Shown: positions 45,461 to 64,000 of the stretch, piece after piece
Position numbering within the stretch: position 1 is the stretch's first letter
Layout: every line of letters begins with the position of its first letter
Virus record (IMG/VR): IMGVR_UViG_3300037047_000246
Source: a virus
Taxonomy: Duplodnaviria; Caudoviricetes
Length of the DNA: 64,000 nucleotides
Reading direction: 5' to 3' (one strand)
Translations under genes and position numbers: made by a program
Notes under the pieces: generated by a model
Database searches by the model: none
Seen by the model: only the letters and a program-made list of their open reading frames with translations
What the model was told of the DNA's origin: nothing

Positions 45461-46990
45461 ATGGTGGACTGGACTGACTTTTTAAACAAATCGGAAACTC
45501 TTCGGCAGTTCGGGTACTCTATGCCGGATAAAGATGCGCAGGACTGCTTCGCCAATTGTGCCTTGTGCAACGAAGCAATTCGCACCACGCGCAGGGCACT
45601 GCGCCGCACTGTGCGTAAAAGGTGTACGTACAGGTGCGGCCCATGCATTGCCAGATCCGACGAAGGTCGCCTAGCTCGATCGCGCCAAGCTAAAGCGGTG
45701 TGGGGAGATCCAGAGATTGCCCGCGCCATACAAGACAAGAACGCACAAAACGCCAGATCTGCGGCTGGCCGGCAGCAGCGCTCTATGCAAGCCAAACTTG
45801 CTTGGGCGACGCCAGAGTTTGCGAGGTTGCACAGAGCGCGCATAGCAACTTTGTTCAAATCGGCTGAACATCGCAGACTTGTTGCAGAGCGCAATAAGTC
45901 AGATTACGCGGCAAATCCGGAAGAATACCTGAAAACCAAGACAGCTGCGCTGCGCTCAGTGCAGGCCAAAGCGGCGCACAAAGCAGCTTTGGCCAAACCA
46001 GAGTACAAACAGCTGCATGCAGAACTGGCTCGAGCTCGTTTTCAAGATCCAGTTTACAAGGCCAAAATCGCTGCTGGGCTCGAAGGTTTCCCCCGCGGAG
46101 GGCGGCAGTCTGCGCCGGAAGTGGCTGTGCGAGATGTGTTGACTGGACTCGGTTGCGAATTCATCTACAACAAATCCCTAGGACCATATAACTTCGATTT
46201 TTTCATCGAGAAGCTAGATTTGTTCGTTGAAGTACAAGGTGAATACTGGCACACGTTGCCTAACAACGAACGCCGAGATAAAGCCAAGTATGCTTATTTG
46301 CGAAGCACCAGGCCCGCATCGAGGATAGTGTACATATGGGACTATGACCTGGTGACTGGCGCGGCTAGCGCTAAACTGGCACAAGCCGTCGGTGTGGCAT
46401 CTTTGCCAGTGCAAGACTTTTGTTTTCACGAAATAGCTTTAAGGGTTGTCGATTCGACGACGGCCAAGAATTTTCTCAACACCTGGCACTACGCACAATT
46501 TGGGAAATCGGGCAAATTCATAATCGGGGCATTTCTGGGTGACCAACTGGCGGCGGTAGCCAAACTGGGTCCAGTGTCACGCAAAGAAGTGGCCACTTCC
46601 CTAGGATCCAATCCTCGAGAAACATTTGAACTGGATCGACTGTGCATCCATCCTATGAGGCAAAAGAAAAACTTTGCTTCATACTTCCTTAGTCGAGTCA
46701 CCACACTGTTTTTCAACGCGTTTCCTGGTGCGATGCGCGTTGTTGCTTTTTCTGATGAGACGTTTGGGCACGACGGCACGGTGTATAAGGCCTGCAACTG
46801 GTCCCAAACGGGCACAGTGCGACCCGACTACATGTACGTGCGAAATGACGGTTGGTCTATGCACAAGAAAACGCTGTACAACCAAGCCCTCTCGGTGCAC
46901 ATGACCGAGAAGCAGTACGCGCAACAAAATGGATGGACGAAAGTGTTCGGCAAATGCAAGCACAAGTTCGTGCTTGAAAGGTCAAAGTAG
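45461..46990 (+). CDS. DUF559/Vsr-like PD-(D/E)XK endonuclease fused to a Mom-like GNAT domain, with N-terminal basic helical repeats
   Basis: SAPE..YNFDFF..VEVQGEYWH..RDKAK; WHY..ELDRLC..NFASYFLSR..VAFSD..GHDGTVYKACNW..G. Confidence 0.85.
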   Translation: MVDWTDFLNKSETLRQFGYSMPDKDAQDCFANCALCNEAIRTTRRALRRTVRKRCTYRCGPCIARSDEGRLARSRQAKAVWGDPEIARAIQDKNAQNARSAAGRQQRSMQAKLAWATPEFARLHRARIATLFKSAEHRRLVAERNKSDYAANPEEYLKTKTAALRSVQAKAAHKAALAKPEYKQLHAELARARFQDPVYKAKIAAGLEGFPRGGRQSAPEVAVRDVLTGLGCEFIYNKSLGPYNFDFFIEKLDLFVEVQGEYWHTLPNNERRDKAKYAYLRSTRPASRIVYIWDYDLVTGAASAKLAQAVGVASLPVQDFCFHEIALRVVDSTTAKNFLNTWHYAQFGKSGKFIIGAFLGDQLAAVAKLGPVSRKEVATSLGSNPRETFELDRLCIHPMRQKKNFASYFLSRVTTLFFNAFPGAMRVVAFSDETFGHDGTVYKACNWSQTGTVRPDYMYVRNDGWSMHKKTLYNQALSVHMTEKQYAQQNGWTKVFGKCKHKFVLERSK

Positions 46991-48181
46991 CGAAATCATG
47001 TCTGCGTGGTCAGCGCCTGTGCCGATCAGCACTACGGGGACGTTGGCTGCAGCTTCAATCCTGTCCACCATCGACCTTGTTTTGGAGGATAGTTTATTGA
47101 ACGCTTCCCTTCCTCCGCGAAGGCCGTGATCGCGCCAGTCCAAATACTGCACGAAATTCAGCGCCAGCTTTGTTGCGCCGTTCGTTGCGACAGCGTCTTC
47201 CAAACCCACCCAAGAGAACGTGCAAACACGTCGCACCCTCTTTGTGACTGTCGTCCTTTCGCGCTCCATGAGTGCAGCTGCCTCTTCGTCTGGCATTCCA
47301 GCTTCCTGTGCTATTTGCTGCCAGGTCAGCTCTTTGCAGTCAGTGTAGAAATCGCCAGAGTACCCCGTCTGCACGCCGTTCTCCTGCACGTTGCCGACTC
47401 GGATGCCAAAAGTACGGAGATTCAGGTATACGTCGCCCACCATGGAAGCTGGCACTGCCATGTCGTCCATGGCCTTTTGGGCGGTGCAGTTGCGCGAGGT
47501 GCAGTGCGGGTAGCTGGAGCCATGGTCGACGGACAAGGCGTATCCTTGGGAACCTTCATGCAGCCAAGTGTTGCCCGCCTTGATCAGACCTTGCACGCTC
47601 GACCTGAACTGCATGCCGTCCAAAATGCGCACTCTGGACTCAAACTCGTGCATGAGCTCGAGCATGCCTGGTCTAGCATGTCCTGTCCATTCAGCCACTT
47701 GTTTGGACCCAACAAGCAGGCATTCCTTCCTGCGCAGAATCTTGTCCACCATGGACGCGGAGCACCCCTGCATCGTGGAAGCGATATGTTTGGTTGACCC
47801 GGAGCCGTTTCTTTCTTGCTCCGCATGGTCCGGAGTGACGACGGAAGCCCTGCTGTGTAGGCACAAACTAGGTCTGCCTGTTTCCACCCATTCGTCGAAC
47901 AGCCTATCCCATGTGCCTTGCTCGGTCACGGTCAGTCCGGAGGCCGGAGACAGCCACCCCTGCATGTTGACGCCTTTGGCCTTCCGAAGTGCCAAAGCAG
48001 TGGGGATGGCTTTCGCCACGAACTTGTAGTTGCCAGACAAGAACGTGTGGCCTGCGTTGGGGAAATTCGAAGACGAGACGTGGCTGACGCCGTACGCGTC
48101 TGCCAGCCAAGCGGACACCTTGCCTTTGCCGGACGATCCCCAGAACCCGTCTAACAAAATGTTGAACTTGCCAGGTTGCAT
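46982..48181 (-). CDS. purZ: PurZ-type 2-amino-2'-deoxyadenylosuccinate synthase (PurA homolog)
   Basis: DGFWGSSGKGK (Ser16 at PurA Asp13); NFPNAGHT; STMQG; EGSQG..YPHCTSRNCT; IRVG; SG.FY.D..ELTW; TTVTKRVRRV; LNFVQYL instead of TKLD. Confidence 0.85.
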   Translation of the reverse strand: MQPGKFNILLDGFWGSSGKGKVSAWLADAYGVSHVSSSNFPNAGHTFLSGNYKFVAKAIPTALALRKAKGVNMQGWLSPASGLTVTEQGTWDRLFDEWVETGRPSLCLHSRASVVTPDHAEQERNGSGSTKHIASTMQGCSASMVDKILRRKECLLVGSKQVAEWTGHARPGMLELMHEFESRVRILDGMQFRSSVQGLIKAGNTWLHEGSQGYALSVDHGSSYPHCTSRNCTAQKAMDDMAVPASMVGDVYLNLRTFGIRVGNVQENGVQTGYSGDFYTDCKELTWQQIAQEAGMPDEEAAALMERERTTVTKRVRRVCTFSWVGLEDAVATNGATKLALNFVQYLDWRDHGLRGGREAFNKLSSKTRSMVDRIEAAANVPVVLIGTGADHADMISLL

Positions 48182-48510
48182 TATTTTTCCTCCGGCGAGG
48201 CCGGTTTGTGCGACGTTTGCTCAGAATCTGCAGAAAACATCACCATCCCTTTGTACTCTCTGACCCCTGAAACGCCATCGGACGAGACGTCCTGGCCCTC
48301 CGGTTCGTACACCGCCAAGACCAGCTCGCCCGGACCAAGCGAGTTGCCGCTGTCCTCGGCCAGCTGCTGCAGCAGCTGGCCGAGCGTACCCCCGGTGCGC
48401 AACGACAGCAGCTCCGGCACGTCTCTTTGCCAACCGCCGGCGCCGAGGTACCAGGTACCTTCTGGGGCCGAGTACATGTCGTTAATCTGTATCACTGCCA
48501 GTTTCAACAT
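48181..48510 (-). CDS. hypothetical protein coupled to purZ
   Basis: Its stop overlaps the purZ ATG. Confidence 0.65.
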   Translation of the reverse strand: MLKLAVIQINDMYSAPEGTWYLGAGGWQRDVPELLSLRTGGTLGQLLQQLAEDSGNSLGPGELVLAVYEPEGQDVSSDGVSGVREYKGMVMFSADSEQTSHKPASPEEK

Positions 48511-49243
48511 TGAACACTTCCGATTCTACCGACGATACCCTCGCCTTGCCTGCAGCTTTTGCAATTTTGCCGAGGTCTTTTGCTTCGATATACTTGGCCA
48601 ATTGGAAGCGTGCGTCTGTGGGTGGTCCGAGAGCTGCGATGCGGGCGCCGTTTATTTCCTTAGGTGAAAATACACGGCCCACCAGCTGCAACTGCCTGCG
48701 TTTGTTCACTCTGTTGGCCCACCGCATATCCAGCTTCCTTCGAATCGCCTTTTCGGTCATAAACATGACTCGAATTGTGAGATCAGCCGGGATGCGCCCA
48801 TGTACGCGCAAGGATGCTCGACACGCGTAGTCGCAAGCCAGAGCGAACGCTTCTTGGTAAGAGTCTGCTCGGATGAGCACATGTGCTAGCTTAAAACGAG
48901 GCGGAAGTATGACTCTCCACACTTTCGTGCGGTCGCTTATCGAAGCGCCTGGTCCGAGAAGCCTTTCCAGGGTTTCTTGCCGATATCCGGGAAAAGACAA
49001 GTCCGTGGCGGCGTCGTACAACTGGTCAAATCTGGTTTTGCCGATTTGTGCCGGAGACGCGGGCAGAGTATCCAAAAGCTCAGCCGGTATGGAGTTGTTC
49101 ATCACCATCGAGTAAAGGAGCGACGCCAGATACTGCTTTTCTTTGCTGCCTCTGAAGCGCTTCATACATTTCTCTACGGCTGCAACAGCTTTACGCTGGT
49201 CCACCCGGACAGTGCCTCCTTTACGTTTCTTTGAACTAGCCAT
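48482..49243 (-). CDS. basic hypothetical protein
   Basis: ATG 49243 within ORF 48482..49345. Confidence 0.7.
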   Translation of the reverse strand: MASSKKRKGGTVRVDQRKAVAAVEKCMKRFRGSKEKQYLASLLYSMVMNNSIPAELLDTLPASPAQIGKTRFDQLYDAATDLSFPGYRQETLERLLGPGASISDRTKVWRVILPPRFKLAHVLIRADSYQEAFALACDYACRASLRVHGRIPADLTIRVMFMTEKAIRRKLDMRWANRVNKRRQLQLVGRVFSPKEINGARIAALGPPTDARFQLAKYIEAKDLGKIAKAAGKARVSSVESEVFNVETGSDTD

Positions 49244-49501
49244 CTGTCTCACCTGTAGAGTATCGAGCAATGTGCAGACTGAGGGAACATACGTGACAAT
49301 ACGCTGCACTCGGTTCCCTTCGGTTTTGTGCGTTCTTGGAACCAAGGCGCCCGAAGCCGATCTCGCAGAGACAGAGGCACGATCCGAAAGATTTGAGAAA
49401 AAGGACTGCTCGATGATTCGGTTCCTTGTGAGTCATCCTGCTGCATCAGGTAGCCAGATCCAAAAAGTCTGTTGCCCCCTGATGGAGAGTTTTTAACTCT
49501 C

Positions 49502-49969: not shown

Positions 49970-50896
49970 ATGAGGAAGTTTGTTCCCCACATCGTGGCAT
50001 GGTCTGTTCTTGCCATTTTGATAGGATGGAACTCGCCCTCGAGAGCGGACGAACCCGACGCAGCAGACCTGCGAAAATGGGTTGTTGACCGCATGACTGC
50101 TTGGTCCAAACCAGGCGCCACTTTGCATCCGCCAGCAATGGAGACGTTTGAAGACGGTCGGGCGAGATATGAGCTCATAGCAAATTCCGTTCTGGCCACC
50201 GTGGCCAGAGAAAAACCTGTGTTTAGCGGCAAACGAGGCAGAATTCGCACAGCGGCTCTGCTGCTGTCCATTTCAATGTTCGAGAGTTCGTATCGAAAAG
50301 ACGTGGATATGAACTTGGGCAAACAGGGGCGAGGAGACAACGGGCGCTCCTGGTGCCTCATGCAGGTGCAGCTGGGGTCTCCTGTGTACGTGGACGCCGC
50401 CACTAGGCAACGGGTGCAGCTTGTGCAGGTATGCAACGACGTGCCACTATCTGGTATCAAACCAGGTGCCGCGGGCTCGTTCAGGAAATGCGAATTCCGT
50501 CCGCCTGCTGGTGCCCTGGCCTCCACGCCTTCGCGCATCGTCCTTGACGGTGAAGGATATGAACTCACATCGGACCAGACGCGCGGACACAGTGGTCAGG
50601 ATTTGGTCGCCGACAGAGGGCTGTGCTTCACCGCTGGTCTCAGGATACTGCGCAGCTCTTTCAGAGCCTGCAGGTCGCTGCCTGTGTTGGAGCAGTTGTC
50701 GGCTTACGCCTCTGGCAACTGCGTCAGCGGCAGGGATGCTTCGCGCCGCAGGATGTCTGCGGCGATTCGGTGGCTGTCCTCTTACCCGCCTCCGGCAGAC
50801 GACGAACAACTGATGAAGCTCTTCTTGGACGCACCTGACGAAGAGCCGGCAGACGAGCCGTCTGCCGTCCTGAACGCACTGTACGCAGGCACCTGA
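49970..50896 (+). CDS. secreted lysozyme/transglycosylase-like protein of a myxobacterial-type family
   Basis: Signal peptide; LLLSISMFESSYRKDVD..GRGDNGRSWCLMQV with candidate catalytic Glu. Confidence 0.7.
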   Translation: MRKFVPHIVAWSVLAILIGWNSPSRADEPDAADLRKWVVDRMTAWSKPGATLHPPAMETFEDGRARYELIANSVLATVAREKPVFSGKRGRIRTAALLLSISMFESSYRKDVDMNLGKQGRGDNGRSWCLMQVQLGSPVYVDAATRQRVQLVQVCNDVPLSGIKPGAAGSFRKCEFRPPAGALASTPSRIVLDGEGYELTSDQTRGHSGQDLVADRGLCFTAGLRILRSSFRACRSLPVLEQLSAYASGNCVSGRDASRRRMSAAIRWLSSYPPPADDEQLMKLFLDAPDEEPADEPSAVLNALYAGT

Positions 50897-51067: not shown

Positions 51068-52741
51068 ATGGAGCAGGGGTCCCTATGGGTAAGAGGCGAC
51101 AAGTCTTTGTGGCGGGAGATCAAGATCCCCTCCAACAGCGAATTTTTGCAGCTGTACTACAAGTGGACCTTCGGAAAGGTCGCGGAGCTGTTTCGGCGCG
51201 ATAGGGACCGCATCCAGGACTCTGTGCAGGATGCGTGCATGCGTCTGCTCCAGAAGGACTTCATAGGCCGCTGGTTCTTCCGGCATCTGTCTCACGAGCT
51301 GGTGTCCCGCGACGAAGCCGAGCGCATCCTCGGCCCAGGCTCCAAACTCAAGTTCATCTCTGCTGTTTGTCCAGTCGTGGGCAAACGCTCAGAGAAGGAC
51401 TCTCTGTGGCGCATAAGCGATCTGCTCGCCTATGCGAAGTTCGACCACGACCGATACTACTACTCTATTCAAAATCACACAATCACATCTGACTTGGTGC
51501 TGAGGATGCTTGGCTATTCTGATCTTGCTGTGCCGGTGGAGTCCCCAGAGGCCTCCAACCCAAAGAGCAAGGTTCAGGATCCTAACAATCCGGGACAGTT
51601 CATCAGCCACAAAGCTGAAGCCTACAATGTGCTGAAGTCCTTGTACAAGCAGGGCCGGTTGAAGCCGGCCGAGCTGACCCAGCACGATTGCTGCGAACAG
51701 TCAACTTCCGGTTCGGCTCTTCGCGGCCAGGACGGCGAATTCGCGAGGAACAGCGCGGGCGAACTCATGTGCTCAGTGCCGGATTGCGGCAAGAAGCATT
51801 TTGCGCGCGGATTCTGCACCCTGCACTATGGCCAGCAGACGAAATCGGTCTGTCAGGAATGCGAAAGGGGTCGAGCGTCTTTGCGATCTCGCCATCTTTC
51901 CTTGGCTGACGACTGGACGAAAAATCCGCAAGCGGCCTCTGTCCTCAGGTGGAACGATTCTCAGCTGCGCCCATTTTTGCGGCATTGGCGGGGGTGCAAT
52001 GCCGTCAGCTCTGTGCCTCACTACATCGTTCGTCCGGACAATCATCAGGGGCAGTACCAGGGGATCAAAGCCGGTTTGTTGGCTTACGCTGCTAAAGTCA
52101 TAAACAACGCGGTATGCAATAACTTCACCAGGTTGGGTCGCACGTCAGACTTGGACAGCACGATCTTCAACGACGGCATTTCGCCGGACGTAGGCAATCA
52201 AGACGTGGTTGCCTGGGAAACTGAAGACGGCACGGACCACAAGGTCATGGTGGTCAAAGACTCCAGTGCGCTTGAGTCTTTCCGCATCGCTGAAGCTGGT
52301 CACGACGTACGCGCAATGGCGGCAAAAGCCAGCCTCACTGACGAAGAGCGGGCGGCTCTGGACTCGGTGGATATGAACGACACCAGCATCAGAGAGTTTG
52401 CTCAGCAGCGAGACGTGTCTGTGGCGTATGTACATAGGATCCGCAATGCAGCTTTTGAGAAGCTGCGCAATGCCGAGATTGCAGACGCATTTGTGGACAA
52501 GATGGCGGAGCTGGTGTGTGCGAAGTACGGCTGCTCGTACGGCGAGCTGATAGGTGACGACAGAGTCGGTCCGTGCGTTCTGGCCAGAACAGAGTTCTTT
52601 CACCACCTGCACGAGTTTGGTTTGTCAGTGGACGAAATCGCCAGTCGCATCGGCATGTCGAAGGATCGCGTCAGCCTGTCGATAAGCCGGGCAGTGGTCA
52701 TGTGCAAGCCGTTCACTGACATGAGCGGCATAACCCTTTAG
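51068..52741 (+). CDS. sigma70/ECF-like factor with a large Zn-finger insertion and a DnaA C-terminal-like domain
   Basis: RIQDSVQDACMRLL (2.2); LLAYAAKVINNAV (2.3/2.4); LTDEERAAL..SIREFAQQRDVSVAYVHRIRNAAFEKLR (4); CSVPDC..HFARGFCTLHY; VCAKYGCSYGELIG..RVGPCVLAR..LSVDEIASRIG. Confidence 0.75.
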   Translation: MEQGSLWVRGDKSLWREIKIPSNSEFLQLYYKWTFGKVAELFRRDRDRIQDSVQDACMRLLQKDFIGRWFFRHLSHELVSRDEAERILGPGSKLKFISAVCPVVGKRSEKDSLWRISDLLAYAKFDHDRYYYSIQNHTITSDLVLRMLGYSDLAVPVESPEASNPKSKVQDPNNPGQFISHKAEAYNVLKSLYKQGRLKPAELTQHDCCEQSTSGSALRGQDGEFARNSAGELMCSVPDCGKKHFARGFCTLHYGQQTKSVCQECERGRASLRSRHLSLADDWTKNPQAASVLRWNDSQLRPFLRHWRGCNAVSSVPHYIVRPDNHQGQYQGIKAGLLAYAAKVINNAVCNNFTRLGRTSDLDSTIFNDGISPDVGNQDVVAWETEDGTDHKVMVVKDSSALESFRIAEAGHDVRAMAAKASLTDEERAALDSVDMNDTSIREFAQQRDVSVAYVHRIRNAAFEKLRNAEIADAFVDKMAELVCAKYGCSYGELIGDDRVGPCVLARTEFFHHLHEFGLSVDEIASRIGMSKDRVSLSISRAVVMCKPFTDMSGITL

Positions 52742-54486
52742 TGGCTTGGCTCAGCCGAGCCATGCAACCTACATTTCGTGTATCCGCAAGCACCAGGTTC
52801 GTCCTAGCTTTCATGCGTCTCAGCGCGGACATCGCTGAAGGATTTGGCAGAGCTATCCTGTCGATTCTCCAGAAGCAATATCCGGAGATGCGCAGGGAGA
52901 TGGCTGAAGACGAAAAGTACAAAGAGAATCCTGCTGCCGCGGTTGGCCACAAGCTGCTTGCTATCGCCAGGAAGCAGCTTCAGTACAACGATCAGGACGC
53001 GTACGACGCCATCCAGGACTTTCTGGTATACCTGACTTCAAGTAATTTCCAGTTCAAGTCCCCCACCAAGCGCGGCAATCCAGGCGCGTCCACATGGCGC
53101 CACGCCCTAGGCAACATCTTTTCGAATATGCACACTCGGGCGATGTCGCATTCGTTCAAGAAGTTCAAGGCGGGCAAACACACTGAGGAGGACCTGTACT
53201 CTGATTTGAAGTGGCGCAAAAACCAGTTTGATCAAGGCAACAAGCGATATAACTGGACTGAAGACGACGAAGACGAGCTGGCTAGGCTGGAGCAGGCTCT
53301 GCGTACGAAGAACGTAGACATCAACAAGATCGTCCCTACCAAGCTTCGGCGCAAAAATACTCGCGACAAGACTCTGGACGAGGCGTTCGGCAAGCGGGAT
53401 GAAGGTGGCTCGCCTTCAGGCGGTTTGGAACGCATGCCGGTGTCGCCTGAGTCTTCCATGGGAATGCCTTCTGACGAGCGTGCGGCGAAGAAGAGCTTCA
53501 TGGAAGTGCTTGACGAAGTTGTGCCGGACCTTCAGAACGAGCTCAACCAGCCTGAGTATAGAACAGTTGACCGCACCCCAGATTTCCCAGTCGGTCTGCC
53601 GGCGCAGCGGTTTTTGTTTGAGTATATCATGTCGGAAGAGGGCACTGGATCATTTTTGCCCGATATCAAGGCGAACATGGGCCAGGCTTCAGAATTCCGT
53701 GACTGGCTCGAGGAGCGAGCTACCAGGCCGGGCCCCAACGGCAAAGAAGCACGCGAAGTCCTCAAGCGATATGCTAAGAGGTGGTCCGGATTTGTCGGCG
53801 ACACCAGACTGAAGCTGATGAAATCCGTGCAGAGCTTCATGGAAGACGCGCTGCCCGAGCAAGAGTACGAGCAGCTGTGGAATGAATTTTTCTCCGACAC
53901 CACGCCGCGCCAAGTGGAGAAGCTCAAAGAGCGGCGTGACTTGGAAGCTGTGCGGTACCAGCGTGGTAGGGACTTGCGGGCTTTGATCCGCATGATGGAA
54001 TCCAGCAAGCTCGGACTGCTGTCCACAAAAGAGCAGTCCGACATGACCAAGCTGAAGCAGAAGATCGGGCGCGAGATCGAAGACGAAATGACAGATGCCG
54101 TGGTCAGCGCGCAGAACAAATACAAGAAGGACATGGAGCAGTATTCTAAGATGCTTGACTCCTATATGCGCAAACGCGAGCAAGTGTCGCATCTGCCCGT
54201 GGAGAAACAGCCGAAGTTGGATAGGCCTGAGAAGCCTAAGCCAGTTAATCCTGCCGCAATCAGAGCGGCTATTGGGCCCTTTGACGCTCAGCTCAAGTAC
54301 GCATATGCGGAGTGGGGCGAAGATATCACGAAAGCCATCGAAAAGGAACTTGGCCACCAGATCCAGAAAGAGGACGAGGAGAAGGCCGCAGCTGATATTG
54401 CTGAGCAGGCCATTGCCGAGGTAGACCAGCGCAGGGAGCCCATCGCATCTCGCGTGGCCCGAAAGTTCCTTCGTTTGTGCACCTGA
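52741..54486 (+). CDS. large protein with sigma region 2/3-like segments and a coiled-coil C-terminus
   Basis: IARKQL..DQDAYDAIQDFLVYL..STWRHALGNIF.N; KTLDEAFG; no clear region 4; start uncertain. Confidence 0.5.
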   Translation: MAWLSRAMQPTFRVSASTRFVLAFMRLSADIAEGFGRAILSILQKQYPEMRREMAEDEKYKENPAAAVGHKLLAIARKQLQYNDQDAYDAIQDFLVYLTSSNFQFKSPTKRGNPGASTWRHALGNIFSNMHTRAMSHSFKKFKAGKHTEEDLYSDLKWRKNQFDQGNKRYNWTEDDEDELARLEQALRTKNVDINKIVPTKLRRKNTRDKTLDEAFGKRDEGGSPSGGLERMPVSPESSMGMPSDERAAKKSFMEVLDEVVPDLQNELNQPEYRTVDRTPDFPVGLPAQRFLFEYIMSEEGTGSFLPDIKANMGQASEFRDWLEERATRPGPNGKEAREVLKRYAKRWSGFVGDTRLKLMKSVQSFMEDALPEQEYEQLWNEFFSDTTPRQVEKLKERRDLEAVRYQRGRDLRALIRMMESSKLGLLSTKEQSDMTKLKQKIGREIEDEMTDAVVSAQNKYKKDMEQYSKMLDSYMRKREQVSHLPVEKQPKLDRPEKPKPVNPAAIRAAIGPFDAQLKYAYAEWGEDITKAIEKELGHQIQKEDEEKAAADIAEQAIAEVDQRREPIASRVARKFLRLCT

Positions 54487-54519: not shown

Positions 54520-54720
54520 ATGGAAAAAGATTACCCCGTCGTTCTGATCAAATGCCGCCGAGGCCAAGACGCGGCGACTTCCGGCCAAGAGTGTGGCAGC
54601 AATCAGGCCTACAATTTGGCCAACCACGGCGACTTCGTGGTCAAGTTCAAATGCGTCAAGTGCGGCTACATTTGGTCCACACCTGTCGGCGGTTCCATGA
54701 ACCTTCCGCCCGGCGTTTAA
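54520..54720 (+). CDS. zinc-ribbon protein
   Basis: C-x12-CGSNQAY..FKCVKCGYIWS. Confidence 0.7.
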   Translation: MEKDYPVVLIKCRRGQDAATSGQECGSNQAYNLANHGDFVVKFKCVKCGYIWSTPVGGSMNLPPGV

Positions 54721-54960
54721 ATGATCGCGCTTTGCCCCAAATGTGCCAAGCCCATGGAGCCGCTTGGGCAAGTGAACCGCATGGCGTGCTTTAGCTGCCG
54801 ATGTATCTTCGATGTTAGAATAACAGTAGACATCGAAGAGGTTTTCAGCAGTGACAAAGACGCCAACTTTGACGCGGACAGAGCAGTTCGAGGAGCTTCG
54901 CCGCCTAATCTTTTGCCCGCCGACTGCAGCCGTGTTGACGGGGCCAGAGAAGACGGGTAA
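54721..54960 (+). CDS. zinc-ribbon protein
   Basis: CPKC..CFSC; overlaps the holB-like start. Confidence 0.55.
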   Translation: MIALCPKCAKPMEPLGQVNRMACFSCRCIFDVRITVDIEEVFSSDKDANFDADRAVRGASPPNLLPADCSRVDGAREDG

Positions 54961-55624
54961 ATGGCGCACCGCTGTGCAGGTGTCGGAGTTTGCAGGCCTT
55001 AGTGACGTCCTGCAAGTCGACGGGTCCATAGATGGAGCGCGTCAAGCGGCTTCATTTTTGAAGTCCATGCCGCTTGACGGCGTTGTGAGATTGGTCGTGG
55101 TAGACGGCCGGTCCGGCATATCAGAACCTGCGCAGGACGCCTACCTGAAAACTTGCGAAGAGACGCCAGAATTTGCCTCAATTCTGTTCGTGGCGGAAGA
55201 CGCGAACTTGCTGCGGCCCGCGCTGCTGTCTCGCTTGACCGTGCTGCATTGGTCTGCTGCCACCGCGGACGAGGTGCGCGCAACGACAGAAGTTGACGAC
55301 TTCGTTGCGACTATGTTGCGAGGAAGGACTGAACTTTGCCAGACTGCGACTAAAAATGCTGTCGCGCTGCGCGCACTGTACGACGCTGCAATTGACCTGG
55401 CGAACAGCTCACTAGACCTGACCAGGGCGCCGTCCATGCTGACCGAGTGGTCCAAACTGGACGATGACTGCAAGAAAGCAGCCATTTTGGCGTGCGAAGC
55501 TGCGGCCGCGCATGCGCTAGAAGCACCGCGTTTGACGTCTCTGCTTCTTTTTGTAGACGTGCTTAGGACCTGCCCGTCTGCAAATGTTGAAGTCCATTGG
55601 TGGCGAGCCTGCATGGCGGTGTAA
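54851..55624 (+). CDS. holB: DNA polymerase III delta-prime-like clamp-loader subunit
   Basis: VLTGPEKTGK; IDGAR; VVVD..ISEPAQDAYLKTCEE; LLRPALLSR. Confidence 0.8.
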   Translation: MTKTPTLTRTEQFEELRRLIFCPPTAAVLTGPEKTGKWRTAVQVSEFAGLSDVLQVDGSIDGARQAASFLKSMPLDGVVRLVVVDGRSGISEPAQDAYLKTCEETPEFASILFVAEDANLLRPALLSRLTVLHWSAATADEVRATTEVDDFVATMLRGRTELCQTATKNAVALRALYDAAIDLANSSLDLTRAPSMLTEWSKLDDDCKKAAILACEAAAAHALEAPRLTSLLLFVDVLRTCPSANVEVHWWRACMAV

Positions 55625-56556
55625 TGTGCTTTGCGGTGAGCACTTTAATCATTGTTAACGGGGACGACGACTTCCTGAAAGAGCGTGCAGCTCTTGACGA
55701 GTCGGCTATGAGTCTGGCGCCTTCTGTTCAGCATTTTTCGCTGAAGAGCGACGCTGAAAAGTATGCCGAGTGGCTTGACATGATTCCGATCGGAGGCGTC
55801 TGCACTTTGGTGCTGTGGGATGCTACAGAAGTGCCGGATTTGCCGTCTGACGGCACTGTCGTTTTGGTTGCCGCAAAAGGCAAAACCATTCACAGTGCAC
55901 GTGCTAAGCGCGAAGTCGAAGTCAAAAAACCCAAGCCGTACGACGACGGAGCAGAGTACGTGCGATGGATTCTGAAGGAAGGCGAGCGGCTTAACATAGA
56001 TCTAAGCATGATTGCCGTCGCACTTTTTTGGAACTGTGGGACGGACCTACGGAAGATATGCTCAGAGATCACGAAGATCAAAGTGCTGGTGGGTCCCGGA
56101 GGCACCGCTGAACCATCTTTGGCTCGGCGCGTCATGTGCTTTTCCGCTGAACTAACCCCTAAACATGTTATCGATGCTGTGTGTGAAGGTCATCCAGCTA
56201 AAGCCATCGCCTTCTACGATAGGCTGCAAGAAGGGGGATGCGAGACGGGATGGATAATAGCATACATGCAGCGTCATGCTATTCAGCAGTTACGTGCGGA
56301 GCTGTTGCTGAAGTCCGGGCACACGGTGGAGCAGGTGGCCGCTGCTTTCGGCTCACATCCGGCGTTCGTGAGGAGTAACATCCTTCCTAAGCTTGGTCTG
56401 TGGAGCATTTCTTCTTTGCGCTTTAGCCTTGACACCCTGTGCAGTCTTGATCTGAAGCACAAGCGCGGCACAGATGTTTCTCGATGGGGACTGGAACCAG
56501 AAATCATACGTTTGTCCGAGGAGGCCAAACACAATGTCACAAGTCGTCGAAGTTGA
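55624..56556 (+). CDS. holA: DNA polymerase III delta-like clamp-loader subunit
   Basis: IIVNGDDDFLKE; GTDLRKICSEITK; VIDAV..AKAI..YDRL..IAYMQR; LCSLDLKHK. Confidence 0.8.
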   Translation: MCFAVSTLIIVNGDDDFLKERAALDESAMSLAPSVQHFSLKSDAEKYAEWLDMIPIGGVCTLVLWDATEVPDLPSDGTVVLVAAKGKTIHSARAKREVEVKKPKPYDDGAEYVRWILKEGERLNIDLSMIAVALFWNCGTDLRKICSEITKIKVLVGPGGTAEPSLARRVMCFSAELTPKHVIDAVCEGHPAKAIAFYDRLQEGGCETGWIIAYMQRHAIQQLRAELLLKSGHTVEQVAAAFGSHPAFVRSNILPKLGLWSISSLRFSLDTLCSLDLKHKRGTDVSRWGLEPEIIRLSEEAKHNVTSRRS

Positions 56557-59305
56557 GCGTTGCAATGTTGTTGAGCTGCAGCGTCCGACCGCAGCAAAGG
56601 AAGCTGAGTCCGCTGGCCGTTGGACCAGATTTTTCACAAAGGAAGAAGTACACCCTTTTGACGAAATCCGGTGGAAGATTACCGATGCCAGGATAGTCAG
56701 CTCTGACGGCGTTGTCGTGTTTGAGCAGCTCGGAGTTGAGGTGCCTGATTGGTGGAGCGTCAACACGATCAACATCGTTGCTGACAAATACTTCCGGGTG
56801 ATTGATGGAGAGAAAGAAAACTCCGTCAAGCAAATGATCTTTCGAGTTGCGGTAGTCATGCGTAAGTGGGCTGCGGAGCAGGGTTATTTCAACTCTGATC
56901 ACGACGCCCAAGTCTATGAAGACGAACTGTGCTACGTGCTTCTGCACCAGTACGGAGCATTCAACTCGCCCGTCTGGTTCAACATCGGAGTGCCTGGTCG
57001 CAAGCAACAAGCCTCCGCTTGTTTCATTTCTAGCGTCGACGACACGCTTGACGCCATCATGGAGTTTCAGAAATCTGAAGTCAAAATTTTCGCTGGCGGT
57101 TCTGGTTCTGGCGGAAACTTGTCCAACTTGCGCTCGTCTTGGGAACGTCTGTCGTCTGGTTCATATGTGTCTGGCACGCTGGCATGGATGGAGGGCTTCG
57201 ACAAATTCGCCAAGGCCATGAAGTCCGGCGGCAGCACGCGCAACGCGGCCAAGATCATTGTGCTGGATATGGACCACCCAGACATCCTTGAAACAAAGGA
57301 CGGCCGCCCCGGATTTATTCGTTGCAAAGCGGCCTCGGAGAAAATTGCCCAGGACCTGGCTGCTCTGGGCTACGGCGTGGCCTACGACGATCCAAATTCA
57401 GTTTACAAGCTTGTGCCGTTCCAGAACGCCAACCATTCGGTCAGCGTCGACGATGCCTTCATGAAAGCTGTGGTCGACGACAAAGAATGGTGCACTGTGG
57501 AACGCACGACAGGCAAGGTTGTGCACACTTACAAAGCGCGCGACATGTGGCGCGAAGTGGCAGAAGCTGCTTGGACTTGCGGCGATCCAGGCATTCAGTT
57601 CACAGATACGATCAACGATTGGCATACCACTCCAGCTGCCGGTCGCATTCGTTCAAGTAACCCGTGTGCTGAATATCTCAACATAGACAACACAGCTTGC
57701 AACCTGGCGGCTATCAATCTGACAAAATTCTTTGACGGCCGAAAATTGGCGACAGACCGCTTGGCGCATGTGGTGCGTGTGCTAGTGACGGCGCAAAATG
57801 CCATAATTGCCATGGCCGAGTATCCGACGCAGGCTATCGCTGACAACTCGATCAAGCTGCGACCGATCGGGCTGAACTATGGCAACCTTGGGTCGCTCAT
57901 CATGAAGCTCGGATATGGCTACAATTCGGACGAGGGGCGGGCTGTTGCTGCTCGCACAGCGAGCTTGATGACAGGCATGGCGTATGTGGCGGCAGCAAAG
58001 TTGGCTTCCCGCATCGGTGCCTTCCCTGCTTTCCATGACAACAGGGAGCCCATGCTTGGCGTCATTGCTAAACATGCCGCTGCTGATGCCGACGTTTGCC
58101 AGCGCTGGAGTTTGCATCATGACCCGCTGGGGAAAGACGTCAAATCGTGCAGTGCATCCATATGGCGCGAAGCGCTAGAGCTCGGCCGCAAATATGGCTA
58201 CTCGGTGTCTCAAACTACGCTGCAGGCGCCGCTCGGCACGCTGTCGTTTTTGATGGAGATGGACACGACTGGCGTCGAGCCCATGTTCTCTCTGGTTACC
58301 TACAAATCTCTGGTCGGCGGCGGGGCGCTCAAACTGGTGAACTCGGCAGTGCTAGGTGCTCTGGAAGGTCTAGGGTACTCTAAGTCGCAGATTGAAGTCA
58401 TCTGCAAGTACATTGAGACCAATGACTACATAGAGGGAGCGCCTGGCCTCAATCCAAAGCATCTGCCTGTGTTCGACGGCGCCATGGCTTGCGGCCCCTC
58501 TGGCAGACACTTGTCTCCGATGGCGCATGTGGATATGTTGGCGGCCATCCAACCGCTCATCACTTGCTCCATCAGCAAAACTGTCAACCTAGCTAAAAAC
58601 ACCACTCCAGAGGAAATCGCCGACATTTACCTGCAGGCTTGGAAGCTCGGGGTCAAGTGCATCGCACTGTATCGGGACGGCAGCAAGATGTCGCAGCCTC
58701 TCGTAACAAAGACTTCTGAAGCTCCCACCGTGTCAATCGCGCCTCCTAGCGAGGAGGCGACACGACGCCGGCATCTGCCCGCGGATTTGGAAGGACACCG
58801 GCATCGGTTCACCATGGGCGGCTGCAAAGGGTATATCATGATGAACGAATACCCGGACGGCAGTTTGGGCGAGGTGTTCTTGCGTCTCGGCAAGACCGGC
58901 ACGACAATGGCTGGATTTATCGATGGGTTCACGCAGCTGCTTAGCATTTCTCTTCAGTATGGCGTGCCGCTAGACAAGATGATCCGATCGTTCGTGCATA
59001 CGAAGTTCGAACCGTCTGGGTTTACAGACAATCCGCAGATCCGGTTCGCCGACAGTCTGTTCGATTACCTGTTCAAACTGCTCGACATACGATATTTCGA
59101 AGGTCGCAACTCAGGCTTGGCAGACAAACTTGCGGCGATGGCATCTGAATCCGAGGACGCCGGCTCGCTGCCGCCGGTGTCCATGCCGGCTCCTGAACCG
59201 GTCAACGTCAGCGCCCCCATCTGTCCCAACTGCGGCAGCATGACGCGCCGGGTCGGCACCTGCCACCTGTGTGCGACGTGTGGAACAAGCACTGGATGCA
59301 GCTGA
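56534..59305 (+). CDS. nrdJ: class II (B12-dependent) ribonucleotide reductase with TSCPD and Zn-ribbon tail
   Basis: FNSPVWFN; QASACFI; GSGSGGN; GGSTRNAAK; SNPCAEY; NTACNLAAINL; QAPLGT; SISKTVN; LYRDGSK; CPNCG..CATCG. Confidence 0.95.
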   Translation: MSQVVEVERCNVVELQRPTAAKEAESAGRWTRFFTKEEVHPFDEIRWKITDARIVSSDGVVVFEQLGVEVPDWWSVNTINIVADKYFRVIDGEKENSVKQMIFRVAVVMRKWAAEQGYFNSDHDAQVYEDELCYVLLHQYGAFNSPVWFNIGVPGRKQQASACFISSVDDTLDAIMEFQKSEVKIFAGGSGSGGNLSNLRSSWERLSSGSYVSGTLAWMEGFDKFAKAMKSGGSTRNAAKIIVLDMDHPDILETKDGRPGFIRCKAASEKIAQDLAALGYGVAYDDPNSVYKLVPFQNANHSVSVDDAFMKAVVDDKEWCTVERTTGKVVHTYKARDMWREVAEAAWTCGDPGIQFTDTINDWHTTPAAGRIRSSNPCAEYLNIDNTACNLAAINLTKFFDGRKLATDRLAHVVRVLVTAQNAIIAMAEYPTQAIADNSIKLRPIGLNYGNLGSLIMKLGYGYNSDEGRAVAARTASLMTGMAYVAAAKLASRIGAFPAFHDNREPMLGVIAKHAAADADVCQRWSLHHDPLGKDVKSCSASIWREALELGRKYGYSVSQTTLQAPLGTLSFLMEMDTTGVEPMFSLVTYKSLVGGGALKLVNSAVLGALEGLGYSKSQIEVICKYIETNDYIEGAPGLNPKHLPVFDGAMACGPSGRHLSPMAHVDMLAAIQPLITCSISKTVNLAKNTTPEEIADIYLQAWKLGVKCIALYRDGSKMSQPLVTKTSEAPTVSIAPPSEEATRRRHLPADLEGHRHRFTMGGCKGYIMMNEYPDGSLGEVFLRLGKTGTTMAGFIDGFTQLLSISLQYGVPLDKMIRSFVHTKFEPSGFTDNPQIRFADSLFDYLFKLLDIRYFEGRNSGLADKLAAMASESEDAGSLPPVSMPAPEPVNVSAPICPNCGSMTRRVGTCHLCATCGTSTGCS

Positions 59306-60954
59306 CCCTACGGGACCTTTGGACCGAGGCGCAGTGGGGTAAACTGCGCCTCGTTCCTCCTTTTCCTGATTGGAGTGCCAAATCACACAACAAAGCATTG
59401 TGGCAATGCGAGTGTGGCCGGCGCAAGCAGATCATAACCCAAAATGTGACTAGCGGAAGGACAACCTCCTGCGGACAGTGTTCAGTCCTGTCTGCAGAAT
59501 ACTGGACTGCGACCAAGTTCGGCCACTTGCGCATGCAGACGCCTCAAGATATGCATCCGAAATCTTCTCGGAAAGTGGCTTGGCTGTGTGACTGCGGGCG
59601 TAGCAAGCTCATCGTGGTGCACAGCGTAGTCAACGGCGCCACTGTGCGATGCGGCCAGTGCAACGTTGTGGACCCTGGCCTGGCGCAGTTTGGGCTGTGG
59701 ACAGTGTCGCTGACCGGCAACGAGACTCAAAGCAGTGATGCGAAAATTCAGGCTCGATGCCGGTGCGGCCTGCAGTCTGAGGTTCGTTTAGCTGACCTCA
59801 CATCAGGCAAATCTAAAAGCTGTGGTCGGTGTTTTGAACGCGCCATGCAGTGGTATGAAGATCACCGAGATCAACTGCGTCAACTGCGCCTTCCATTTCC
59901 GCCAGATGCCTTGCCGAGCGGGTGGATCGTGGCCCGGTCGGCGGTTGTGCGTAGCAGCGTGCCGTTTGACGCTGAGTGCGGGGCCTGCGGTCGCTCGTAC
60001 AGGCCAACGTGGAACAATATTAGACAAGGCAAATCGCTAACTTGTGGCTGCGTTTCATCAAGAGTGTCGCATGGCCATAAACGACTAGCGGACTTCATAG
60101 TGTCGCTTGGTTTTGATGTTGAAGTGGAACACGCTATTGGCGGGCTAAAATTCGACGTTGTGGTGCCTAGTGCGCGCCTGGCGATTGAATTCCAGGGGCT
60201 CCACTGGCATTCTGCAGAGGGGTCGCAGACGAGGGACTTTAAAAAATTTGCTTTGGCCAGGAGCCTTGGTTACGGCGTAATATGTTTATATGAAGACGAA
60301 TGGCACGAGCATCGGCATAAAATCGAGAACTTGTTGCGCAGCCGGCTCGGTGTGAGCCGACCCGTCAGGTGGCGCGGATCCAAGTGCACGGTGTCTTGCG
60401 TATCGAGTGCGGACGCGGATGCCTTTCATGACAGTTACCACTATATTGGAGCCGCCCGATGTCCAGTCAACTACGGGGTGTTCGTTGAAGGAAACCTCGT
60501 TGCTTGCGCTTCTTTCAGGCGTCCAACCCGCCAGTCCAAATATCAGTACGAACTGGCGAGAATGTCCTCCTGCCCAAATATCACGGTGCATGGCGCATGG
60601 TCCAAGGTGATGCAAGCTTTTGCTTTTGACCACAAGCCCGAATCCGTCGTATCATTCTCTGACGATCGGTTATTTGACGGGCTCGTGTATGGCAAGATCG
60701 GATTTCGGCGCGACGGGAAAGTGAAGCCGGACTATTACTGGACTGACGGGAAGCGACGTTGGCATAAATCGTCGATGCGCAAGCGTGGTACTGAGCGCAC
60801 AAGTGGCAAGACAGAGGGGCAACTCAGGTCTGCCGTCGGTTTGTGCAAAATTTGGGACTTGGGTAAAACGAGGTGGGTATGGCCGCACACTTCCAATTCA
60901 GTGGTAAAGGAAGCTGACAGACGAGGAGATGGCCGCGGTCGTTCCCATGTCTAA
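59296..60954 (+). CDS. putative homing endonuclease: repeated CxCG..SCG Zn ribbons, DUF559-like nuclease, GNAT (Hef/Mom-like) domain
   Basis: WQCECGR..SGRTTSCGQC repeats; FDVVVPSARLAIEFQGLHWHS; HYIG..YELARM..SFSDDRLFDG.VY..GF..PDYYW. Confidence 0.85.
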   Translation: MQLTLRDLWTEAQWGKLRLVPPFPDWSAKSHNKALWQCECGRRKQIITQNVTSGRTTSCGQCSVLSAEYWTATKFGHLRMQTPQDMHPKSSRKVAWLCDCGRSKLIVVHSVVNGATVRCGQCNVVDPGLAQFGLWTVSLTGNETQSSDAKIQARCRCGLQSEVRLADLTSGKSKSCGRCFERAMQWYEDHRDQLRQLRLPFPPDALPSGWIVARSAVVRSSVPFDAECGACGRSYRPTWNNIRQGKSLTCGCVSSRVSHGHKRLADFIVSLGFDVEVEHAIGGLKFDVVVPSARLAIEFQGLHWHSAEGSQTRDFKKFALARSLGYGVICLYEDEWHEHRHKIENLLRSRLGVSRPVRWRGSKCTVSCVSSADADAFHDSYHYIGAARCPVNYGVFVEGNLVACASFRRPTRQSKYQYELARMSSCPNITVHGAWSKVMQAFAFDHKPESVVSFSDDRLFDGLVYGKIGFRRDGKVKPDYYWTDGKRRWHKSSMRKRGTERTSGKTEGQLRSAVGLCKIWDLGKTRWVWPHTSNSVVKEADRRGDGRGRSHV

Positions 60955-61947: not shown

Positions 61948-63063
61948 TTATGTGGTTTCCAGGTCGAGATTTGCCGCCAGGTAAGGAATGACGTCGTTCC
62001 TGCGCTCTACCAACACTCTGCATCCGCGGAACAATTTGAGCTCGGTGAACATTTTGAGATTGTGCAGAGACACGCTCTCTATGGTGACTCCTCCGATATG
62101 GACTGGCTCGACTTTAGCTACCGGGCAGACACGTCCGGTGGGGCCTACTTGCCACACCACGTCCAAGACCCTGGTTTCCGCTTTTTCCGACTCGAATTTC
62201 CAAGCGATCTGACCAAGTGGACACTTGTCGACATGACCAAGCTCTTCAAGCAGCTTCATGTCGTCCACTGAGACCACCATGCCGTCGATGTCGTAGGCCA
62301 CGGAGGAGCGCCAGGCCGCAGATTTATCAAATTCTTCCACGATGAGCTCGACAGTACCTTGGCAGATAGGCGGCACTTTGAATCCTAGGCGCTCTAGCCA
62401 GCTGAACACTAGCACCATGGAGTCGGGGCGTTCTTCAGCTTGAGCCCAATATGCTACGAACTCCAAATCTTCGCACGCGGCGCCCGCTCCTTTCTTCTCC
62501 CGCATTTTGGCTGCCGCCGTGTTGCGCGGGTTGGCATACTTCGCCGCATATTTGTTCTGAAACATGGACCGGAGCATGACCGCTTCGCCGCGCACTGTGG
62601 CGTCGATCTCAGCAAGTTTGCCATCCAACTCTAGTCTGTGCGGCACTGACGGAATGCGCCGCACATTGGTGGTCACGTCTTCTCCAACTATGCCGTCGCC
62701 GCGAGTGACCCCTCGAACAAGCTTTCCGCCTCTATACACTAGCTCAAGAGACGCTCCGTCTATCTTGTGGGTCATGACGAAGGCGCCGGTCGCTCCTGTC
62801 TTGGCTGCCCAGCCGCGGAATTCTTCAGCGCAGTGCACTTTGCTGAGCGACCCCATCAGGATTTCGTGGCGGACCTTTTCCCAGACGGAGACTGATGGAG
62901 GGGCGGCTCCTACTGCACGAGTTTCAAAGTGCTCCGGGCATATTTGCCGAAGTCTGTCTCTGGCTTCGTCGTACTCGTGATCAGGGACCAGCGGGTCCAA
63001 GTTGTAGTACGCTTGTCTCCACAAAGATAATTTGGCAGCAAGTTTTTTGGCTTCTTCGTCCAT
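61948..63063 (-). CDS. ligA: NAD+-dependent DNA ligase, domain Ia + adenylation + OB only
   Basis: YY..DPLVPDHEYD; MGSLSK; KIDG; TRGDG..GEDVT; RGE; NPRNTAA; IDGMV; AWKF; WQVGPTGRVCP; SLHN; RRNDVIP, then stop. Confidence 0.9.
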   Translation of the reverse strand: MDEEAKKLAAKLSLWRQAYYNLDPLVPDHEYDEARDRLRQICPEHFETRAVGAAPPSVSVWEKVRHEILMGSLSKVHCAEEFRGWAAKTGATGAFVMTHKIDGASLELVYRGGKLVRGVTRGDGIVGEDVTTNVRRIPSVPHRLELDGKLAEIDATVRGEAVMLRSMFQNKYAAKYANPRNTAAAKMREKKGAGAACEDLEFVAYWAQAEERPDSMVLVFSWLERLGFKVPPICQGTVELIVEEFDKSAAWRSSVAYDIDGMVVSVDDMKLLEELGHVDKCPLGQIAWKFESEKAETRVLDVVWQVGPTGRVCPVAKVEPVHIGGVTIESVSLHNLKMFTELKLFRGCRVLVERRNDVIPYLAANLDLETT

Positions 63064-63084
63064 GGAACAAAATACAGTTGGCAA

Positions 63085-64000
63085 TTACGTCAGCTGCATC
63101 ACCCACCGCTTCTTTCCCAGGTCCCAAATCTTCGTGTAACCCTGAGACTCCCTTAGTTTGCTTTCTGTCGCCTCGCATCCAGGCGGTTTGCGCAAGGCGC
63201 TTTTGTGCCATCTTTTTTGGCCGCGCGTCCAGTAGTAGTCAGGAGCAACGTCGCCGTCGAAGACAAAACCTAGCTTTTCGTAGACCGAGCCAGTGAACAG
63301 CCTGTTATCAGAGAAGCTCACCACAGACCCGCTGCGACCTTCGGCAAACTCACGAAGCAGTTTGTGCCAAATTCCGTGCACCCGGTACCTGGGATTCGAA
63401 GCCATGCGCACCAGTTCCCAACTGTGCTTAGACTGGCGCGTAGGCTTTTTGAAGCTCACGCATGCCACCACTTCTCCGTTCACTGCTGCGCTGAAATTGA
63501 ACTTGGCGCAGCAGCCGCCAAGGTAGTGGTGTTTGTCGTAGAAAGCGTCCGCTTGCGCAGCCTGGATTCGCCCCACTTGCGTCTTGCTCGGGCGCATAGG
63601 TAAACAGTCCAGTCGGCCGACCCTGTTCAAGATCAGGTTCCCAAACACTTCCCGTTTGTTCGCCCATTCGTCTTCGAATATGGACAACATCCCCCACCCG
63701 CATCGCATTGCTTGCGCAAACTTCCGCGCGTCTCTATTGTGAGACTGTTTTCCGGAGTGCCACCGAAGTCCGTTGTGCTCTATGAGAATGCGCTTGCTCG
63801 GCACGCCCACGTCGTACTTCATTCCGTCGACTTCGAACTCTGCCTGTGCATGCACTCCGTTGGCAGCAAGGAAGTCAAGGATGCCTTGTTGCCCGGAGGA
63901 GACTCGGCTGCTCGCACATCCGCAGTTCAAGGAAATTCCCCGCTTGATGTCGTTCATGCGAGGTCTGTATGTTGCGCCACATGCCGGGCACATGGCGTCG
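63085..64000 (-). CDS. putative homing endonuclease (Zn ribbon, DUF559-like nuclease, GNAT/Hef-like), 5'-truncated by the window edge
   Basis: CPACG..SLNCGC; YDVGVPSKRILIEHNGLRWHS; HHYLG..WELVRM..SFSDNRLFTG.VY..GF..PDYYW; frame open to the window end. Confidence 0.85.
   Translation of the reverse strand, partial: DAMCPACGATYRPRMNDIKRGISLNCGCASSRVSSGQQGILDFLAANGVHAQAEFEVDGMKYDVGVPSKRILIEHNGLRWHSGKQSHNRDARKFAQAMRCGWGMLSIFEDEWANKREVFGNLILNRVGRLDCLPMRPSKTQVGRIQAAQADAFYDKHHYLGGCCAKFNFSAAVNGEVVACVSFKKPTRQSKHSWELVRMASNPRYRVHGIWHKLLREFAEGRSGSVVSFSDNRLFTGSVYEKLGFVFDGDVAPDYYWTRGQKRWHKSALRKPPGCEATESKLRESQGYTKIWDLGKKRWVMQLT

Follow-up and report, generated by a model that had tools for sequence, protein, structure and literature searches.

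A predicted bacterial-type sliding clamp and clamp loader accompany a family A DNA polymerase in a clade of phages with PurZ-type genes

We analyzed a 64,000-nucleotide (nt) stretch of DNA (the window) from IMG/VR virus record IMGVR_UViG_3300037047_000246, focusing on two adjacent genes that resemble those for the δ′ and δ subunits of the bacterial clamp loader. The window corresponds to positions 233348–297347 of the 362,524-bp record, read on the minus strand; coordinates marked 'genome' refer to that record and all others to the window. CheckV rates the genome as 100% complete, and its contig ends overlap by ~29 bp, typical of a closed assembly. The replication genes found across it point to a hybrid replisome, which we consider fairly probable, built of a family A polymerase, a bacterial-type clamp and a (DnaX)3-δ-δ′ loader, without DnaE. 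An earlier note on this DNA had placed δ′-like and δ-like genes side by side directly upstream of nrdJ and had taken them to imply a Pol III-type replisome. Both open reading frames (ORFs) lie where they were reported, and Pfam, profile and AF2/Foldseek searches back the two assignments. As for the replisome, its accessory parts hold up (δ, δ′, a DnaX-like ATPase and a beta-type clamp), whereas DnaE is not detectable and PolA is the only polymerase found.

The δ′-like (HolB-like) subunit, of 257 amino acids (aa), is encoded at 54851–55624 (+) by a gene with a GTG start and the ribosome-binding site AAGAGG 8 nt upstream. The protein matches PF13177 (DNA_pol3_delta2) with 27.3 bits against a cut-off of 27, and phrog_5846 (PHROG 5846, 'clamp loader of DNA polymerase') at 6e-10. 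A family profile of 15 homologues (30–51% identity) matched, among PDB entries, the T. maritima δ′-like protein 2gno (4e-11), RFC small subunits including RFC3 (1e-10), E. coli γ/τ (1e-7) and E. coli δ′ (2e-4). Invariant across the 15 sequences are the G-x4-GK of Walker A (GPEKTGKW in this phage), the clamp-loader box AQDAYLKxCEE, and residues S127 and R128 of an 'SRL' that stands in place of SRC. The residue after the Walker A lysine is W, H, R, Y or A in the family, never Ser or Thr, and Walker B (VVVDG here) reads VDG or VDD in place of Asp-Glu. By these motifs the protein is probably ATPase-dead with its arginine finger kept, and a degenerate ATP site joined to a retained arginine finger is the signature of δ′.

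The δ-like (HolA-like) subunit follows on the same strand (55624/55636–56556, +; ~306–310 aa). Its longest ORF spans 55597–56556; because homologues begin at 'STLIIVNG', the start is ATG 55624 or GTG 55636, the former overlapping the δ′ stop codon (TAATG, with a shared A). The protein matches PF21694 (DNA_pol3_delta_C) with 28.3 bits against a cut-off of 27. Its homologues (n = 175, 43–84% identity) reside on contigs of up to 439 kb, and several carry the JGI label 'DNA polymerase III delta subunit'. Against the PDB, the family profile matched δ of B. subtilis (3zh9, 9e-10) and of E. coli (1jqj, 6e-6). With an AF2 model (pLDDT 86) as query, the top eight Foldseek matches were all δ subunits, aligned over ~330 columns; 3zh9, 3gli_F, 1jqj and 1jr3_D were matched with E of 3e-11 to 6e-10. 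TM values were only 0.38–0.47, which is consistent with domain orientations that differ from those of the solved structures. No P-loop GxxxxGK motif occurs in the protein. As modelled, it has the three-domain δ fold lacking a P-loop. Residues ~176–209 (…VMCFSAELTPKxVVDAVCEGH…) form a 34-residue stretch weakly like one TAL-effector repeat. TAL effectors topped a PDB profile search with δ, and we discounted them as an artefact of summed weak matches of one stretch to the repeat.

The genome contains a second PF13177 gene, ~13 kb beyond the end of the window (genome 218955–220319, −). It encodes a DnaX-like ATPase of 454 aa, with PF13177 at ~80–82 bits, AAA at 39.5 bits and phrog_5846 at 1.2e-51. 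Walker A (GPKGTGKTT) is intact in this protein, and a zinc module CGSCGSC (CxxCxxC), Walker B (ILDEA) and an arginine finger (SRA) are present. Its C-terminal part consists of a Pro/Thr-rich linker and a short tail. This region (residues ~350–454), a (PT)n linker plus a conserved-looking tail (…REFARAFLSRFKK), is reminiscent of the tau extension, and the tail could couple the loader to a helicase or polymerase. A FEN gene adjoins dnaX.

The clamp itself is cryptic. Searches of the phage's own genome with PF00712 and TIGR00663 returned no clamp, the protein described here falling below their cut-offs. Over ten relatives, TIGR00663 gave a single weak match (E 0.008, 11 bits), to a 378-aa ORF, whose homologue in this genome is a 369-aa ORF (phmmer 2.8e-65) at genome 223570–224679 (−). 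Pfam and PHROG scans of the 369-aa protein found no match, and a single-sequence search against the PDB gave noise only. A family profile of 34 sequences, however, matched beta clamps of six species, all collinearly, with T. maritima DnaN at 1.8e-9. The AF2 model (pLDDT 87, pTM 0.84) comprises six beta-alpha-beta-beta-beta units, and its top 500 Foldseek matches are all bacterial beta clamps, the lowest E being 3.8e-21 and TM 0.75–0.79 over the full length. Identity to bacterial beta clamps is 10–15%. Profile and model identify the protein as a cryptic, divergent beta-type clamp, which, as such, would form a head-to-tail dimeric ring. We had also considered this ORF as the N-terminal half of a split Rad50, an idea rejected by the fold result (Foldseek matches to beta clamps only). 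The surrounding genes encode Mre11/exonuclease, an SbcC-like ATPase (Mre11/Rad50-like), a DnaG-type primase, DnaX, FEN, RecD2 and ligase.

Searches for a polymerase to go with these parts found family A and no family C. The earlier note had proposed looking for dnaE, dnaN and dnaX across the full genome; a dnaX-like gene and a cryptic dnaN-type clamp gene are there, and dnaE was not detected. DnaE/PolC (PF07733) was detected neither in the phage's own complete genome nor in 10 relatives, including four with complete genomes, whereas the same search was positive in all 10 bacterial control genomes. Profile searches of the own genome for PHP, PolB and PrimPol were likewise negative. The only DNA polymerase detected is a 994-aa PolA (genome 55695–58679, −), in which a 3′–5′ exonuclease domain is present and motifs A, B and C are intact. 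All five complete genomes have one PolA, of 945–966 aa in the four relatives. Its best GenBank phage match, at 35%, is from an uncultured 485-kb phage (LR745208.1). An intein-bearing DnaB-like helicase is encoded 2 kb away, and the DnaG-type primase completes this set. The helicase intein (gene at genome 60796–63411, −) has a LAGLIDADG domain, and the neighboring SNF2-type helicase (genome 64285–67299, −) carries a LAGLIDADG insertion.

These genes are conserved across the clade. A pattern scan of IMG/VR yielded 17 loci, including four complete genomes of 377–436 kb. Related contigs share the gene order PurZ-like, several conserved unknowns, sigma-like, δ′, δ, nrdJ, split NAD-ligase, RecD2 and Mre11. 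Each of the 11 records tested (11/11) has one clamp gene, exactly two PF13177 genes (one DnaX-like, one δ′-like), the δ gene and a PurZ-like gene. Within-clade identity is 30–84%, and the δ′ and δ motifs are invariant. Among 50,697 GenBank phage records searched by tblastn, none matched δ′, δ or the clamp, and megablast of the region was likewise negative.

PolA itself has a feature that may link it to the clamp. Its C-terminal part (residues ~925–994) consists of a low-complexity linker followed by a clade-specific domain of ~65 aa, present and conserved in all five complete genomes. In an exhaustive search this domain was recovered from 31 representatives, and it forms the extreme C-terminus in 30/30 of those aligned (one of the 31, the multi-stretch match P0204, was excluded from the alignment). 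The domain ends F-x-x-L-x-x-L-F-G-[LI]-(G), and both the domain and its LFG[LI] ending are conserved in ~35 diverged sequences. In the T4 family, as in several bacterial polymerases, a conserved hydrophobic C-terminal tail docks the polymerase on its clamp.

From these components we can outline how the hybrid replisome would work. δ′ would act as the non-catalytic 'stator' and δ as the 'wrench' of a phage-encoded pentameric clamp loader of bacterial type, with the DnaX-like ATPase as its motor. This loader would open the 369-aa beta-type clamp and place it on primed DNA, where the clamp would tether PolA, the sole DNA polymerase detectable in the phage. Ligase and FEN may share the same clamp during Okazaki-fragment maturation. 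A-to-Z substitution would come about mainly via the nucleotide pool, through PurZ and a DatZ-like HD dNTPase, as in cyanophage S-2L.

Several observations weigh against this reading. At 257 aa, δ′ is short compared to solved δ′ proteins (~305–334 aa), and so its collar domain, which is needed for pentamer assembly, is putative; ~60 residues follow the matched domains I–II, with a conserved C-terminus (PSANAE-x-HWW). The δ-like protein has no match to the Pfam family for the N-terminal part of δ. Its model also lacks an evident helix equivalent to the clamp-opening element of E. coli (Leu73/Phe74); domain I is Rossmann-like, and a conserved 'EVPxLP' loop (P80 invariant) fills the corresponding region. 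The tail of PolA resembles QL[SD]LF-type motifs only loosely, and no similar terminal peptide is seen on the phage's other replication proteins. A scan of 407 crude ORFs for terminal QxxLF/LF-type peptides revealed no docking-tail set common to the replication proteins. The contact between PolA and the clamp is something we infer. DnaE was searched for with Pfam models applied after a fast pre-filter, and a split or very divergent minimal Pol III α, of the sort reported for other jumbo phages (PMC7824862), could in principle escape such a search. Finally, host Pol III or a host clamp may be used.

This last point bears on an alternative in which bulk replication falls to the Pol III core (DnaE) of the host, brought in by the phage clamp and loader, leaving PolA for repair or Okazaki-fragment maturation only, like bacterial Pol I. 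The accessory factors are indeed of the kind usually paired with DnaE, a linker and C-terminal tail like those of tau are present in the DnaX-like protein, and a separate FEN gene adjoins dnaX. Yet with a clamp only 10–15% identical to bacterial clamps, recognition by host α is doubtful. A DnaB-like helicase, encoded beside PolA, and a primase are supplied by the phage itself; PolA keeps its proofreading domain together with a strongly conserved, clade-specific C-terminal domain; and depletion of dATP, expected of a PurZ/DatZ phage, would affect host enzymes too. We regard recruitment of host Pol III as unlikely. A replisome built on a family C polymerase of the phage's own, incorporating Z, was the proposal of the earlier note, and we now consider it very unlikely. 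That every Pol III accessory factor is phage-encoded (beta-type clamp, DnaX-like ATPase, δ and δ′) speaks for it, but its central enzyme was not found: PF07733 is missing from this genome and from the 10 relatives despite positive bacterial controls, no PHP domain was found in the own genome, and PolA is conserved in 5/5 complete genomes.

A different role for the clamp system is suggested by the neighboring genes. In T4, gp45 loaded by gp44/62 activates the gp55/gp33-dependent late promoters. For phage Mu, use of the host beta clamp in late transcription has been reported (PMC12867686). Sigma-like genes adjoin both loader loci here: one at 51068–52741, upstream of δ′, and one for a 259-aa Sigma70_r4 protein (genome 216017–216796, −), two genes (1.3 kb) downstream of dnaX, past FEN. 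The clamp system might therefore serve mainly to activate late transcription, with replication-coupled loading licensing late genes. This we judge rather improbable. Adjacency is the sole evidence for it, the terminal-peptide scan found no clamp-binding peptide on the sigma-like proteins, and such a function would add to the replicative role rather than replace it. That δ′ and δ derive from host contamination, a possibility the earlier note had flagged, or from a recent non-functional capture is scarcely credible. The Pfam scores are barely above the cut-offs, as might be seen in such a case, but the block is syntenic in related phage contigs, with the genes single-copy in 11/11 related phage records; motifs are invariant at a within-clade identity of 30–84%; and the two genes are translationally coupled to neighboring phage genes. 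GC content around δ′ and δ is uniform (~0.53–0.58) and the same as in the surrounding sequence, and the contig is closed and complete.

The hybrid replisome would operate in a phage whose DNA may contain Z. A homologue of PurZ-type 2-aminoadenylosuccinate synthetase is encoded at 46982–48181 (−; PF00709, 9.5e-29). Its P-loop reads GSSGKG(K) versus the GDEGKG(K) of PurA, corresponding to Asp13 → Ser. In the PurZ group, every one of the 147 phage sequences has Ser here, whereas 99% of PurA sequences have Asp (PMC12884076). The best phage matches are the known PurZ proteins of phiVC8, S-2L and ZP6, with 31% identity to that of phiVC8 (E 1e-42). By P-loop and best matches, the protein sides with phage PurZ rather than PurA, in line with the earlier note's description of the virus as a PurZ phage. 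A YfbR/DatZ-like HD protein (66 bits) is encoded at genome 46220–46855.

PolA, by contrast, is not recognizable from its sequence as a DpoZ, the family A enzyme of phiVC8-like and Wayne-like phages (PMC10201439, PMC8599892). The two are alike in being family A polymerases with a 3′–5′ exonuclease in PurZ-encoding phages. In motif B of PolA, RNRGKRCNFAFIYGG (NFAFIYG), positions B3 and B4 hold Phe and Tyr, as is canonical, whereas the corresponding residues of phiVC8 DpoZ, KQMNLGMIF (NLGMIF), are Leu and Phe. Both DpoZ clades have Phe at B4, and the phiVC8-like clade has Leu at B3 (PMC10201439). Identity between PolA and phiVC8 DpoZ is 23%, in the polymerase domain only; PolA is moreover encoded away from purZ, at a distance of ~190 kb, and has, at 994 aa, the extra C-terminal domain. 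The earlier note had named a DpoZ-like family A replicase as the finding that would undo its proposal; the replicase candidate is of family A but not DpoZ-like.

Because PolA has a canonical motif B and is not recognizably a relative of DpoZ, any Z substitution would be achieved mainly by pool control, through PurZ and the DatZ-like HD dNTPase. There is precedent in S-2L, where A is fully substituted by Z without a Z-specific polymerase, DpoZ being dispensable (PMC10201439). This phage resembles S-2L in having a PurZ-type enzyme, a YfbR/DatZ-like HD enzyme and a polymerase without the DpoZ signature; it differs in that S-2L uses PrimPol, none of which is detectable in the genome here. Nucleotide-pool control is the economical explanation of Z incorporation here. 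No new polymerase family is apparently needed for Z biology, the opposite direction from the one taken in the earlier note. A polymerase without DpoZ signatures in a PurZ/DatZ genome supports pool control as a general route to Z-DNA.

The loader and clamp belong to the same four protein families as the E. coli and B. subtilis DnaX complex, (γ/τ)3-δ-δ′, with its beta clamp (PDB 1jr3, 3glf, 8val, 3zh9 and 1jqj). Shared features are a zinc module in the DnaX-type ATPase, a δ′ with a degenerate ATP site and a retained arginine finger, a three-domain δ without P-loop and a three-domain beta-type clamp. In contrast to the bacterial systems, the proteins here are phage-encoded, with 10–18% identity to the solved ones; δ′ is ~50–75 aa shorter; and no DnaE/PolC partner is detectable, only a family A polymerase. 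T4 likewise encodes a loader (gp44/gp62) and a clamp (gp45) for the processivity of its own polymerase (gp43), and the docking peptide at the extreme C-terminus of T4-family polymerases is analogous to the conserved PolA tail. The T4 parts, however, are an RFC/PCNA-type trimeric clamp of two-domain subunits, a 4:1 loader and a family B polymerase, whereas those described here are of bacterial type and combined with family A.

The closest phage parallel is found in the group 3.1 jumbo phages, for which a T7-like PolA and an RFC-like clamp loader were described with 'no detectable clamp' (Iyer et al. 2021; PMC7824862). PolA as core enzyme and an AAA+ loader ATPase of the same PHROG 5846 are common to both; the phage analyzed here differs in having a beta-type clamp and separate δ and δ′. 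By tblastn, the DnaX-like protein matches loader genes of Erwinia Alexandra-like phages, Dickeya JA29, Pseudomonas Paride and Peetri, and a further one in Tunturiibacter phage Tunturi_5. No counterpart of the clamp or δ turned up when Alexandra, Paride, Peetri and Tunturi_5 were searched with the clade profiles. Gene order in Tunturi_5 is similar, and this phage has a PolA. Its annotated 'processivity factor' gp9 was tried as a counterpart of the clamp and rejected (no relation by hhalign, no Pfam match). In the 485-kb LR745208.1, a weakly δ-like ORF of 335 aa was detected (438458–439003, E 2.4e-5), and the clamp profile had no match.

Family A replicases are known for clamp-independent processivity: the T7 enzyme works with thioredoxin, while processivity is intrinsic to the T5 and phi-like enzymes. 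Family C polymerases are the usual partners of beta clamps and gamma-complex loaders. If a conserved phage lineage pairs PolA with a beta clamp, and copies up to ~440 kb with it, these modules would be shown to be exchangeable. We found no description in the literature of a phage PolA combined with a beta-type clamp and a DnaX/δ/δ′ loader, the nearest being the group 3.1 case (PMC7824862). In the 369-aa protein, PolA-type jumbo phages gain a concrete candidate for their clamp, which had escaped sensitive searches. More tentatively, we suggest a clade of ~360–440-kb phages, probably with Z-DNA, in which PolA is made processive by a cryptic beta clamp, a C-terminal docking domain and a minimal DnaX/δ/δ′ loader, the cryptic clamp also explaining the 'missing clamp' of PolA-type jumbo phages; this wider proposal is plausible, yet somewhat less than evenly balanced. 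The weight of these results is limited in that the phage is uncultured and that binding and chemistry are predictions.

In the window, δ′ and δ are part of a co-oriented block. Directly downstream lies nrdJ, for a class II (B12-dependent) ribonucleotide reductase (56534–59305, +; PF02867 at 2e-112, PF08471, TSCPD; ORF open from 56474). Its probable start is ATG 56534, inside the end of the δ gene and with GAGGAGG 9 nt before it; the overlap is present in relatives too. δ′, δ and nrdJ are translationally coupled in series. The block opens upstream with the sigma-like gene (51068–52741, +), which encodes a conserved 557-aa protein with a C-terminus like sigma-70 region 4 (PF04545, 1.2e-6) and 38% identity to a syntenic 541-aa protein of a 436-kb relative. 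Between it and δ′ is a gene for a conserved, helical and charged protein of 581 aa (52741–54486, +), with no Pfam or PHROG match and 30% identity to a syntenic 406-aa protein of a relative; we considered this protein as a clamp and rejected it on account of its helical, charged character. Two small ORFs rich in Cys (zinc-ribbon-like) immediately precede δ′, at 54520–54720 (+) and 54721–54960 (+), and relatives have ORFs of 102–117 aa at this position. A role for them as accessory loader subunits is pure speculation.

Farther downstream, the adenylation and OB part of an NAD-dependent DNA ligase is encoded at 61948–63084 (−; PF01653 at 9.5e-50, PF03120 at 1.9e-20). The ligase gene is split, its HhH/BRCT part being a separate gene (genome 230863–231690, −), and a nuclease–GNAT gene separates the two; the split is common to relatives. 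Orphan ORFs at 49970–50896, 48482–49345, 41510–42439 and 40334–41101, and another at genome 221819–222535, gave no informative matches.

Fusions of a nuclease (MTES_1575/Vsr-like) with a GNAT/Mom-like domain recur beside core genes, purZ, nrdJ and ligA among them. Three are in the window, at 59269–60954 (+), 63085–63993 (−) and 45461–46990 (+), and others are at genome 47417–49123, 214147–216003 and 226795–228597. The copy next to nrdJ (59269–60954), the only one scanned against PHROGs, is labelled there as a homing/HNH endonuclease. Near the replication module, a gene at genome 210753–213146 (−) encodes a 797-aa protein with a Cas12f1-like TNB domain, as in TnpB/Cas12-type nucleases.

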